DNA from: Hormiphora californensis
Lineage: Eukaryota; Animalia; Ctenophora
NCBI GenBank assembly: GCA_020137815.1
Contig: CM035352.1
Location: forward strand, 9,323,176-9,387,175
Direction of reading: 5' to 3'
Length of the DNA stretch: 64,000 bases
Every line of letters begins with the position of its first letter. Positions within the stretch are counted from its first letter, which is position 1. Made by a program: the position numbers and the translations under genes. Below the pieces are notes generated by a model. The model searched no databases. It saw nothing but the letters and a program-made list of their open reading frames with translations, and was not told the DNA's origin. Of this stretch, positions 36,801 through 51,800 are shown piece after piece.

Positions 36801-39800
36801 TGTTTCATTACAGATCATTAGAAAGGTAGAAAGGTAATTTGTTTCATTACAGATCATTAGAAAGGTAGAAAGGTAATTTGTTTCATTACAGATCATTAGA
36901 AAGGTAGAAAGGTAATTTGTTTCATTACAGATCATTAGAAAGGTAGAAAGGTAATTTGTTTCATTACAGATCATTAGAAAGGTAGAAAGGTAATTTGTTT
37001 CATTACAGATCATTAGAAAGGTAGAAAGGTAATTTGTTTCATTACAGATCATTAGAAAGGTAGAAAGGTAATTTGTTTCATTACAGATCATTAGAAAGGT
37101 AGAAAGGTAGTGTTTCATTACAGATCATTAGAAAGGTAGAAAGGTAATTTGTTTCATTACAGATCATTAGAAAGGTAGAAAGGTAATTTGTTTCATTACA
37201 GATCATTAGAAAGGTAGAAAGGTAGTGTTTCATTACAGATCATTAGAAAGGTAGTGTGTTTCATGAGTACCGGTAGTAAGGTGTGTTTCATGATCAGTAC
37301 CGGTAATAAGGAGCACCAGTTGTTTTGGCAGTGATGTTAGCGATTGATTACCGGTAATAAGGAGCACCAGTTGTTTTGGCAGTGATGTTAGCGATTGATT
37401 CGCATTTCAATCCCTGCTCATCAAAAGTGTACCACAGCTCGATACTGGCCAGAATTCTAGGAACACACAAAGCTTCTTTTGCCAAGCAGGTCGTATCGCA
37501 ATCAACTCCAGGTGTAGCTAGTTCATAGAATCCCAGGCCAAACTCTGAAAAACTCTATTGGTTACCATAGCAACTAGGCCAAACTCTATAGAAAGTGATA
37601 TAAAAAGGGGCAGCTATAGAGTCATTTCCTCTATAGAAAGTGAGGTAAACAGGCGCATTGAGTCATATAATAGATAGAGTAATTTCATTCTCTCATGACT
37701 CTTTGCAGTACACTTTGAATCTCTTTCACACAGTATGTGTGGCTCGTGGTATAACTCACGTGTATTTCTTCCCTTCTTGTAGCCTATTGTATCTCCCAGA
37801 GCAGTAAAGCTGTAATCCCTTGCCAGCCCGAGTGGACGGTATAACTGCTCGCTAGATTTTGGCGTTGTGCTCAACACGTCATTTATCATGTTCACAACCA
37901 CCCCTACAATAATGGTGGGAGGGAGTGAGAGTTAATGTTATCTACTCACTGTGAAATATGGTGTACCAGTACAGTGTACATTGTACACTGTACACTGTAC
38001 AATGTACACACTGTCTACAGGCTACTGTCTACAGGCTACAGGCGCGGCGTGGTGGTGAAAACGCGCATTTTGCGCCATGATGCCGCACATTTTGCGCCGA
38101 TTTTAGTTTCATTGGGCTCATTTGAAAGAGCTCAATGTCCTCTTTCCAACGCGCCCAAGATTTTGCAAATTGGTCAAGAAATGACTGAGTTATGGACAAA
38201 AACATTTACCGGTTAACATTTACCGCCTACCGAGTTTCCATGTTTACCAACCATAGAGGTCTCCGGTATATTCTCTCCATACTACCTATTACTATGTATT
38301 ACCTGAGCATTTATCCTGCTGGGCGTAGCACCATTCGATGGAGTCTGTGATGAGTTCTGTTGATTTCTGTGCATCATTATACAGCCCGTAGGGGAGGTAA
38401 TCGTATGTTATCCTCAACATATTGTCTGCGGGAAGTCCAAGGTGTATATCACATTTTAATGTAGTCCAGACTATAGCTAAAACTATAAATCCAAGGAATA
38501 CCACTATTCAATATAGTCACGGGGGTGTCAACTACCAGATACCACCTTCTTCATATCAATGAAGTTCAGACTATAGTTAATATACAGGAACAATAAAGAA
38601 TTCTAAGGATACTTACTGCACATTGGCACTGCTAACTCTATAAGGATACTTACTGCACATTGGCACTGCTAAATTCTATAAGGATACTTACTGCACATGG
38701 GCACTGGACAGTACTCCCAACTGTTATACTCTGGTCCTGACTCCACAAAGCACCATGGTCGACCCGTCCTGGTGACGTCTCGGCAGTAATTATTATCCTG
38801 ACCTAGGATCAACAATTATTAGACAATTTTGACCGGTCATCTAAATTTTCACAGTACACTGTTTCCGGTGGTTAAAGTGTACTGTGAAATTTTAGACCAC
38901 TGCAAAAACACTAGTAATTATAAAGTAAAATACCCCTGGAGTGGTATGTGAAAAATTAAACACTTTCTAGTCACACGCACACAGTGTGAACATTACAAAC
39001 ATTACAAACTGAGTGAAAGAGATAAAGATTAAGTGAGAGAGAGAGAGAGAGAGAGAGAGAGAGAGAGAGAGAGAGAGAGAGAAAGAGAGAGAGAAAGAGA
39101 AAGTGTGTGTGAGAGAGAGAGAGAGAGAGAGAGAGAGAGAGAGAGAGAGAGAGAGAGAGAGAGAGAGAGAGAGAGATAGGAAAAGAGAGAATCGAAGGCA
39201 GAGAGGGAAAGCAGATGCAGGAGGCTCATTGGGGTGGTGCCATCACGTGACGATCACGTGACCTATAGTTGCAGAGGGGAAGAAAAGATAAGGGTTAGGG
39301 CGTGACTACTGCACACGCCTCTCTCTCTCTCTCTCTCTCTCTCTCTCTCTCTCTCTCTCTCTCTCTCTCTCTCACTCAATCTTTATCTCTTTCACTCAGT
39401 TTGTTTCCAAAATCATCTAATAAAATTAGATGACTGCTTTTACATGCTCTATTACACATCAATAATGTTAAAGATTCTTTCACTTTTAGGCCTCGCAGGC
39501 TCGGCCCAAAAGTACAACTACAGAGCTCGCAGGCTCGCTCAGTAGTTACACTTAGCGTGCCTCGCAGGCTCGGCAGCTAAGTAAAAGGATCTACCTCGAC
39601 CTGTCGGTCTCGGTTCATTATTGTTGTATTTAGAACACTCGGCCTTCGGCCTCGTGCACTAAAAAGTAATAGACCATTTTAACCAGTCATCTAATCATAT
39701 ATTAGTTAGCTGATATATTGTTCTGTGATTACCAATTAGTTAGCTGATATATTATTCTGTGATTACCAAATATGATGTATGATGGTTACTATTACTAGTA

Positions 39801-48800: not shown

Positions 48801-51800
48801 GAGCAATAGTCCCATGCTGCTCATTACTTACCGCAGATAGGTATGGAGCAGTAGTCCCATGCTGCTCATTACTTACCGCAGATAGGTATGGAGCAATAGT
48901 CCCATGCTGCTCATTACTTACCGCAGATAGGTATGGAGCAGTAGTCCCATGCTGCTCATTACTTACCGCAGATAGGTATGGAGCAATAGTCCCATGCTGC
49001 TCATTACTTACCGCAGATAGGTATGGAGCAGTAGTCCCATGCTGCTCATTACTTACCGCAGATAGGTATGGAGCAGTAGTCCCATGCTGCTCATTACTTA
49101 CCGCAGATAGGTATGGAGCAGTAGTCCCATGCTGCTCATTACTTACCGCAGATAGGTATGGAGCAGTAGTCCCATGCTGCTCATTACTTACCGCAGATAG
49201 GTATGGAGCAGTAGTCCCATGCTGCTCATTACTTACCGCAGATAGGTATGGAGCAGTAGTCCCATGCTGCTCATTACTTACCGCAGATAGGTATGGAGCA
49301 ATAGTCCCATGCTGCTCATTACTTACCGCAGATAGGTATGGAGCAATAGTCCCATGCTGCTCATTACTTACCGCAGATAGGTATGGAGCAATAGTCCCAT
49401 GCTGCTCATTACTTACCGCAGATAGGTATGGAGCAATAGTCCCATGCTGCTCATTACTTACCGCAGATAGGTATGGAGCAATAGTCCCATGCTGCTCATT
49501 ACTTACCGCAGATAGGTATGGAGCAGTAGTCCCATGCTGCTCATTACTTACCGCAGATAGGTATGGAGCAATAGTCCCATGCTGCTCATTACTTACCGCA
49601 GATAGGTATGGAGCAATAGTCCCATGCTGCTCATTACTTACCGCAGATAGGTATGGAGCAGTAGTCCCATGCTGCTCATTACTTACCGCAGATAGGTATG
49701 GAGCAATAGTCCCATGCTGCTCATTACTTACCGCAGATAGGTATGGAGCAATAGTCCCATGCTGCTCATTACTTACCGCAGATAGGTATGGAGCAATAGT
49801 CCCATGCTGCTCATTACTTACCGCAGATAGGTATGGAGCAATAGTCCCATGCTGCTCATTACTTACCGCAGATAGGTATGGAGCAATAGTCCCATGCTGC
49901 TCATTACTTACCGCAGATAGGTATGGAGCAGTAGTCCCATGCTGCTCATTACTTACCGCAGATAGGTATGGAGCAATAGTCCCATGCTGCTCATTACTTA
50001 CCGCAGATAGGTATGGAGCAATAGTCCCATGCTGCTCATTACTTACCGCAGATAGGTATGGAGCAATAGTCCCATGCTGCTCATTACTTACCGCAGATAG
50101 GTATGGAGCAGTAGTCCCATGCTGCTCATTACTTACCGCAGATAGGTATGGAGCAATAGTCCCATGCTGCTCATTACTTACCGCAGATAGGTATGGAGCA
50201 GTAGTCCCATGCTGCTCATTACTTACCGCAGATAGGTATGGAGCAATAGTCCCATGCTGCTCATTACTTACCGCAGATAGGTATGGAGCAGTAGTCCCAT
50301 TTCTTGGCTGCATCCGTTGTGTAGCACCACGACCTGGATCCTGAATCGTTGGGGTTCCGGCAGTAGTTGTGGTCACCCAAACCCCACCCATAGTAACTGC
50401 AGAGAGAGAGAGAGATATATAGTAACTTCAGCTGGGTCAATATATTTCAGTAGTGACTAATGTTGTTCAAGTGGGGGCACTGATTGGCAGTATTTTTTGG
50501 AGCATAATTAATCAGTTAATATAGAGGAATTGTTATTTGACATTGGATAGCATTTATAATAGAGATCTTGTTGGTGTATTGGAATGCCTTACTTGGTGGG
50601 TGTGTAGGTATGTGTATGAGGGCTCTGTTCAGTCCATTTTTGACATGTGTAACCACCTTGTGTCACTGCCATCCTCCCCTTGTACTCGACCTCTTTGTGG
50701 TCAAAATAGAACCGGCACCCAATACCCTCTGGACAGACGGTATATCGGTTAAAATGCAGCTATACAAGCTATACAATAATCGTATACATTATAAATTAGT
50801 ATTCACATTGTTTGGTTTTATTTTAAATCTATTTGGCCCTGGTTAAGTCTTACCAACTGTTTAAAAAACTTGATTCGTATTACCTAAAGTGTTGCTGACT
50901 TTATTCCATTTTTTGCAGGTCTGTCCAGAGATGGTCGAGGAGACTGTTCCCATGTACGTTTGAGGCTGGATCCCGTCAAAGCAGTCCTCATCTGTGAGGG
51001 GGGTTGGGATGGGTGGGGTGGGTGGGTGGGGTGGTTGGTGGGTTATTGGATGGGTGGAGGGTGGGATTGGTGGGGGTGGGATTGGTGGGGTGGGTGGTGG
51101 AGGCTGGATCCCGTCAAAACAGTCCTCATCTGTGAGGGGGGGGGGGGGTTGGGATGAGTGGGGTGGTGGGTGGGTGGGTGGGTTGTTGGATGGGTGGGAT
51201 TGGTGGCGGTGGGATTGGTGGGGTGGGTGGTGGAGGCTGAATGGGTGGAGGGTGGGATTGGTGGGGTGGGATTGGTGGGGTGCAGTGGGGTGGGTGGTGG
51301 AGGCTGAATGGGTGGAGGGTGGGATTGGTGGGGTGGGATTGGTGGGGTGCAGTGGGGTTGGGATGGGCGGGTGGGTGTTGTAGAGTGGCGTGGGCGGGGT
51401 GGGGAGTTGCGGGGAGTGGGTGGGGCTTTTGCTTTTGCTTTTGCTGCAATCCGCAGCCTTTATGTGTTTGTTGGACCTTACCCTTTTTCTGTTGGTACTG
51501 AACTAACTTCACTTCAGCGTTTTCAACTGACACCGTCTTTAATTTGCTGATCTCTGCAAGTTACACCGATAAGAAATTGAAAACATTATAATCGTCCATC
51601 TTGTTTTTAAAGTACTACTTACCACAAATAATCTCATAAACTTGATTAGCATAAGATCCACCTAGTCCATTAGAAGCACACTTTGTAGATGGTCCCAGAA
51701 ATCGGTAACTATTCTTTGCATTCTTGGAGACACCAAAACATTGATTCCCGGCCTGTACCGCAAACACTGTCGCACCGGCCGCTTTAGCAATAGCAGCACA

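Follow-up and report, generated by a model that had tools for sequence, protein, structure and literature searches.

How can a small domain be encoded by two exons that lie 12 kb apart, when 16 mapped exons (695 codons) of the same strand stand between them? The question is raised by a stretch of 64,000 nucleotides from the ctenophore Hormiphora californensis (assembly GCA_020137815.1, contig CM035352.1, positions 9,323,176 to 9,387,175), referred to here as the window. Its minus strand carries an intron-rich giant gene that extends from a signal-peptide-like exon (56491-56408) past position 1398, and whose product is predicted to be a secreted modular protein; the divided domain is a kringle. 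A total of 86 exons were mapped by hand from AG/GT candidates and open frames, with one exon acceptor placed at 43047 in preference to 43143, and the resulting map is a draft drawn from sequence only. Straight read-through of all 86 mapped exons gave 3,590 residues with zero stops. If the block of exons between the two kringle halves is skipped, the chain is in frame as well and has 2,895 residues within the window. The architecture of the gene is real, conserved, and unusual. The explanation that we tentatively favor, at somewhat less than an even chance, is that class 1-1 cassettes occupy phase-1 introns in domain loops, such that the kringle of a long form would enclose about 700 residues and a short form would likely result from a terminal exon.

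The two halves of the kringle

The N-terminal half of the divided domain (kringle 1) is encoded by exon 50884-50991, which is phase 1 at both ends and contains Cys1 and Cys2. The C-terminal half is encoded by exon 38692-38802, likewise phase 1 at both ends, which contains Cys3 to Cys6 and follows an acceptor that, at -0.8, is the weakest scored in the gene. Kringle 2, the first module of the intervening outer block, comprises two exons within 50272-50728 (phases 1>2 and 2>1). These and all other gene features described are on the minus strand unless stated, and the coordinates, strand, and phases (1>1, 1>2, 2>1, and 1>1) that the initial annotation had assigned to the four kringle exons were reproduced. 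Of the 79 positions of Pfam PF00051, exon 50991-50884 covered 5-29 and exon 38802-38692 covered 48-79, compared to 6-37 and 46-79 for the two exons of kringle 2; exon 50396-50272 was the sole kringle exon above the Pfam curated cut-off by itself. The 3,533 stop-to-stop segments from all six frames of the window were then searched with a hidden Markov model (HMM) built from five kringles. This search located three N-terminal halves, near 50962, 50702, and 13955, and none between 40109 and 38802 (best 4.4 bits, E 8.7), including just upstream of 38802, where the possibility of an overlooked one had been raised. Kringles 2 and 3 are complete, each split by a phase-2 intron, and the orphan halves 50991-50884 and 38802-38692 are therefore the only partners of each other, as had been proposed. 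As mapped, the kringle is split between these two exons. Agreement in phase between the halves is weak evidence because phase-1 introns make up 46 of the 86 in the draft map, and for the same reason the phase-1 ends of the cassettes described below have a high chance expectation.

Across both halves, the six Cys residues (2 + 4) and the kringle motifs are present, and the C-terminal half matched 39 PDB sequences, those listed being kringle proteins. When the halves were joined directly (50884>38802, the skip join), the product scored 37.8 bits with an HMM of six kringles, compared to 20.9 and 23.4 bits for the single halves; the join was not recovered as a single domain by the five-kringle HMM. 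The skip join leaves 16 residues between Cys2 and Cys3, compared to 27-28 in 6/6 comparison kringles, and the resulting domain is 11-12 residues shorter than all six. The initial description of the join as a canonical kringle is thus borne out for all six Cys residues but not for this loop. Shorter loops occur in invertebrate kringles. The predicted complex of the two kringle halves scored 0.30, against a mark of 0.34. Ten candidates outside the tandem array were considered as a missing symmetric micro-exon for the kringle loop, and all were rejected as none appeared kringle-like by eye.

The block between the halves and its inner cassette

The initial annotation counted about 17 intact same-strand exons between the halves, of which 16 were mapped, while one or two more are only candidate terminal exons. 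Kringle 2 is followed by three exons without a Pfam family (47339-48383), encoding a domain that we take to look galectin-like, and then by three exons (43866-47136) that, based on motifs and a weak within-gene profile, would encode the N-terminal part of a fucolectin/F5-8-like domain ending in phase 1. The putative C-terminal part of this domain is encoded by exon 41155-41286 (phase 1>1). Between the two parts lies an inner block of six exons (41637-43778; 259 codons) that is phase 1 at both ends, has no start and no stop, and holds one domain without family match and one complete fucolectin-like domain. Because it contains no stop, the inner block must be either kept, resulting in a domain insertion, or skipped, and a terminated track is impossible there.

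In the within-gene profile, the two parts of the split fucolectin-like domain align at positions 24-73 and 91-124 of 124 (join E 0.002, weak), and a Pfam search of their exons returned no match. The Cys-Cys loop at the inner insertion site has 25 residues and looks as if it carried linkers; the loops of 3/3 paralogous domains of the gene, which lack an intron at this position, have 16. An open frame with phase 1 at both ends, as is characteristic of class 1-1 modules, was found for the inner block and, via donor 40678, for the outer block. With respect to the domains of the outer cassette, kringle 2 is complete, and the end of the last domain, which has no family match, depends on the route by which the block is left.

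The 5' edge of the block

The intron between the N-terminal kringle half and the block (50729-50883) is 155 nt long and phase 1, and a direct join across it is in frame. A single 1,121-nt contig from organism B (run X7, which carries another species label) holds the N-half exon and the first exon of the block in the same order, and the intron between them has diverged and shrunk to about 77 nt; both lengths exceed the shortest introns of the giant gene (64-76 nt). Among the codon differences listed between the two organisms, 8 are synonymous and 3 non-synonymous in exon 50991-50884, 6 and 3 in exon 50728-50593, and 14 and 3 in the fucolectin-like exon 41286-41155. The presence of the N-half and first block exons on one organism B contig, with mostly synonymous changes, indicates that the 5' edge is not a misjoin. 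One contig of run X1, which may be the source sample, covers 50528-50980. Run X14, a possible RNA run, gave no match to 50301-51000, a result without bearing on expression. The linker exon at 51482-51553 (phase 1>1), upstream of the N-half exon, has a donor that is also phase-compatible with 50728, which would allow splicing to pass over the N-half exon.

As the initial annotation stated, the 155-nt gap offers no start with a signal peptide: its two ATGs yield 1 and 6 residues, and no signal-like start is found within 50729-50883. Exon 50728-50593 has a single in-frame ATG (50672), which falls within the kringle sequence and is replaced by TTG in organism B. When the sequence from 64000 to 50729 was scanned for hydrophobic starts, ten were found. 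A donor accompanied four of them, of which two belong to exon 56491, one overlaps a plus-strand open reading frame (ORF) at 63674, and one is located out of frame in exon 52375. The scan yielded no further candidate for a signal-peptide exon with a plausible donor, leaving the first coding exon (56408-56491), with its ATG and hydrophobic signal-peptide-like stretch, as the sole such exon with a donor upstream of the block. Since the block has no usable start of its own, it most likely shares the 5' exons of the host gene. A spliced-leader search, which had been suggested for this edge, gave two one-mismatch matches to the end motif, which is chance level (14/100 shuffles).

The 3' end of the block

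Splice sites were scored with matrices trained on the same hand-made exon map (82 training donors, minimum score 0.5). The last solid exon of the block (40674-40818) has donors at 40685 (phase 0, 3.4), 40678 (phase 1, 6.9), and 40674 (phase 2, -0.5). Of these, 40678 is the best (30th percentile) and joins 38802 in frame and stop-free. Two candidate exons follow. The first (40439-40519) is read in the phase-0 frame for 26 codons to a TGA at 40441-40439 and has a weak phase-2 donor at 40443. The second (40109-40220), a candidate terminal or composite exon, has an acceptor scoring 10.8 (81st percentile) and reaches a TGA at 40111-40109 in the phase-2 frame. Arriving there in phase 2 requires donor 40674 (-0.5), donor 40443 (-0.0) via exon 40519, or an extra weak-donor exon, and the two natural phase-2 donors score below all 82 training donors. 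Other routes from exon 40818 stop at 40441, 40502, or 40104. The TGA that was initially taken as the end of the track is therefore present, but it is not a necessary end, given the poor phase-2 donors and the in-frame donor at 40678.

The coding score of the candidate terminal exon falls at the 31st percentile of true exons and the 86th of off-frame sequences, in a frame that depends on weak donors. The exon also contains two phase-1 donors that fit 38802, 40189 (4.8) and 40129 (0.4), so it is possibly composite, either terminating or splicing on. Use of donor 40189 would add 11 residues and bring the Cys2-Cys3 distance without the insert from 16 to 27, the value of 5/6 comparators. Neither AATAAA nor ATTAAA occurs between 40440 and 38803. 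Two identities were tried for the last domain of the block and set aside: a PAN-like domain was unsupported by pairwise tests, and a WSC domain, suggested by eye, was unsupported by an HMM of 267 sequences (best route 4.9 bits; 54/500 shuffles scored as high as the terminal exon). The 20 nt at 40206-40225, which comprise the 40220 acceptor and the start of its exon, recur as a near-duplicate 171 nt farther downstream, at 40035-40054.

Proposed nesting of cassettes within domains

Under the explanation that we favor, both cassettes would be class 1-1 exon sets that entered phase-1 introns located by chance in surface loops. The 16-exon, 695-codon cassette in the intron between the kringle halves would likely be spliced in and form an insertion in the Cys2-Cys3 loop, and the 259-codon cassette would likewise lie within the fucolectin-like domain of the first cassette. 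Default exon-by-exon splicing would join 50884 to 50728. The end of the block would then have two outcomes: splicing to 38802, with 40678 or one of the donors inside exon 40220 as the source, or termination in a last exon, which would yield a short form of about 1,090-1,140 residues in which half a kringle is orphaned. The kringle halves of the long form would fold together around the insert. In kringle and F5/8-type folds, the two termini are neighbors, an arrangement in which an insert could close on itself. We are slightly more hesitant about the full three-level doll, in which an 80-residue kringle would surround about 700 residues and one domain within these would surround about 260, and in which splicing may switch host domains between intact and interrupted by skipping or keeping multi-exon cassettes.

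Read-through was ranked first mainly because it would account for both levels by one process, the entry of phase-1 cassettes into introns within loops, combined with ordinary splicing and an ordinary choice of terminal exon. The open 3,590-residue chain, the in-frame 50884>50728 join, the best donor 40678 being phase 1, and the mostly synonymous change of the N-half and of the fucolectin-like C-terminal part in organism B are consistent with it. Several observations weigh on the other side. Default splicing may terminate because the acceptor reached first, at 40220, is strong (10.8) and that at 38802 is weak (-0.8). Routes via exon 40220 need weak donors, and the 11 residues of 40220-40189 fit the kringle profile no better than random (283/500 controls as high). 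Leaving at 40678 would appear to shorten the last domain of the block, as judged by a tentative PAN-like motif. The within-gene test of the split fucolectin-like domain is weak, and conservation of both halves would suit skipping equally well. Finally, a 695-residue insert in an 80-residue host runs counter to the general pattern, in which 77% of events involve an insert smaller than its host, with medians of 115 and 199 residues (PMC13114784).

Alternative explanations

Three readings were put forward in the initial annotation. An independent nested gene is disfavored by the single signal-peptide exon and by the TTG that replaces ATG 50672, and a terminated, skipped track is possible but not forced, because the block reads through in frame. 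Domain-in-domain read-through fits at least as well.

Among the alternatives, the one that survives best, although we consider it unlikely, is a pair of alternative tracks with a common 5' end. A giant form would join 50884 to 38802, skipping 16-18 exons and producing the 2,895 residues in the window with an intact short-loop kringle, and a short form would enter the block with or without the N-half exon and stop there. The skip join is in frame, restores the six Cys residues, and scores above either half (37.8 versus 20.9 and 23.4 bits), the block is closed by a strong terminal-type exon with a stop, and the oversized insert is avoided (PMC13114784). Moreover, many nested genes of H. californensis have the same orientation as their hosts, meaning that host transcripts are able to splice over exons of their own strand (PMC8527503), and in titin an internal stop-bearing exon gives the short form Novex-3 (PMC5852582). 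However, an in-frame acceptor just 77-155 nt away would have to be bypassed, RNA duplexes between the flanks are no better than those of shuffled sequences (22, 30, and 16 of 30 as strong), and the resulting kringle is 11-12 residues shorter than 6/6 comparators and is not seen as one domain by the five-kringle HMM. The stop-free inner block would also go unexplained unless a second skip is assumed.

It is improbable that the block is an independent same-strand gene, nested or interleaved, that begins with a spliced leader at 50728 or with a 5' exon outside the window. H. californensis does have parallel and doubly nested genes, and leaders are found on 56% of its Iso-Seq reads (PMC8527503), but ATG 50672, the sole in-frame start codon that the first block exon offers, is within kringle sequence and corresponds to TTG in organism B. 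Between 64000 and 50729, the search for a further signal-peptide exon followed by a plausible donor was negative, and a gene of this kind would encode a disulfide-rich lectin chain that lacks a signal peptide. We likewise give little credence to a long form that is rare or dead, in which the gene would normally end in the block, the half-kringles would be retained linkers, and the downstream exons would be expressed otherwise. Such an ending would agree with the low acceptor score at 38802, beside which lies a repeat-like stretch of 34 nt, and with the truncated LE domains that laminin retains next to inserts (PMC5338690). On the other hand, the C-terminal half keeps four Cys residues and the kringle motifs, and the exon chain that follows it stays open over about 2,500 codons. 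The mapping, which did not include a dedicated scan there, brought up no signal-peptide exon in this chain. An assembly misjoin that placed the block between the halves is very improbable. At the 3' edge (40109-38802), where GA microsatellites and a high-copy repeat occur, no bridging contig was found, and runs X5, X7, X11, and X12 left 39897-40464 uncovered, gaps of this kind between contigs being uninformative. On the other side, the X1 contig spans 50528-50980, the organism B contig has both exons in the same order, and N is absent from the 64-kb window.

The surrounding gene and its repeats

Upstream of the linker exon lies a WSC domain exon (51623-51892; phase 1>1), to which single-exon ORFs in other data sets (P0008, P0152, P0032, and P0153) are 67-73% identical. 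A homolog search restricted to proteins of up to 2,000 residues supported 2/46 candidates for the WSC exon, both distant multi-WSC proteins, 0/12 candidates for exon 47558-47339, and 0/3 for exon 40818. The close matches from a representative search were single-exon ORFs (best 150 of 815), and a metagenome scan returned 22 loci, matching the WSC exon only. A spliced ortholog of the giant gene was not found in these homolog, representative, and metagenome searches. The rest of the gene (1398-38425) is an open, phase-consistent chain with further fucolectin-like domains, kringle 3 (14035-8958), and a sushi domain, and the exons downstream of 38802 stay stop-free up to the window end.

A number of places in the map allow more than one solution. 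A 33-nt exon candidate at 52139-52171 was left out because its join to 51892 creates a TAG; the adjoining frames look domain-like, and a frameshift, a sequence error, or another boundary is possible. Exon 28912-29015 is open and protein-like in two frames (1>0 and 2>1), and exons 29229-29160 and 28054-27954 are phase-compatible too, a hint of a third nested block in a phase-2 intron. The 31-nt exon at 30565-30595 needs a weak donor and, if left unspliced, leads to a stop after 14 codons, and may be a composite terminal exon. Upstream copies of exon starts occur at about 51130 and 28186. On the plus strand, ORF fragments with hydrophobic stretches at 57500-64000 apparently belong to a membrane-protein gene beside the 5' end of the giant gene.

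Tandem arrays are located at 48643-50300, 32527-37254, 19954-21884, 1-1430, and 38604-38706, and the one after exon 50272 has 37 copies of 45 nt. As the array units include an exon end and donor, they generate many decoy donors. A very high-copy repeat is located at 39400-39700 (contig depth in the hundreds of thousands, run X5), and a 34-nt look-alike of its end (38811-38844) directly precedes the weak acceptor at 38802. Introns also hold long elements of palindromic or inverted-repeat structure, probably transposon-derived, at 46275-46764 (confirmed by BLAST) and, as seen by eye or as tandem arrays, at 26800-27700, 17600-18800, 11531-13129, and 23920-24100.

Relation to known systems and implications

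The laminin L4 domains, which are located between Cys3 and Cys4 of an LE domain, provide a precedent: L4/LF modules are likewise large globular insertions between Cys residues of a small disulfide-bonded extracellular domain, the halves of which still pair (PMC5338690). In contrast, the insert described here has four or more domains (695 residues) and is itself interrupted, the host is a kringle, and the arrangement is a prediction. The FN2 modules of MMP2 lie inside the catalytic domain. They exemplify class 1-1 shuffling, in which domains insert into pre-existing phase-1 introns and phase-1-flanked exon sets likewise come to lie in a phase-1 intron (PMC3927616); here, the landing introns are inside a kringle and a fucolectin-like domain, there are two levels, and a stop may end the cassette. 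Titin is also a giant modular gene with an internal stop-bearing exon that results in a short form, Novex-3 (PMC5852582), although that form relies on one exon rather than on a multi-exon track that branches off inside a domain. The parallel nested intronic genes of H. californensis are same-strand multi-exon units in larger genes, some doubly nested (PMC8527503), but they are separate transcripts, whereas the present block has no start of its own and is in frame with its host. Recursive host-insert architectures are also known from nested A1-B1-C-B2-A2 domain insertions, of which the examples seen are enzymes with inserts mostly smaller than their hosts (PMC13114784). The words kringle, extracellular, and exon are absent from the text of that paper. 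No account of a split kringle or of this locus was found in the literature, with supplements outside the scope of the search, and the supplement on nested genes in H. californensis may bear on the matter.

Exon shuffling is usually described as the addition of modules between domains. Whether the block is read through or skipped, this gene would depart from that description. If it is read through, a tiny disulfide-knotted domain would tolerate an insert nine times its own size, twice nested. If it is skipped, the spliceosome would pass 16-18 same-strand exons to build one domain, and the locus would offer a defined substrate for the study of splicing in genomes rich in parallel nested genes. 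Gene predictors are expected to split or mangle such loci, and more of them may therefore be hidden.

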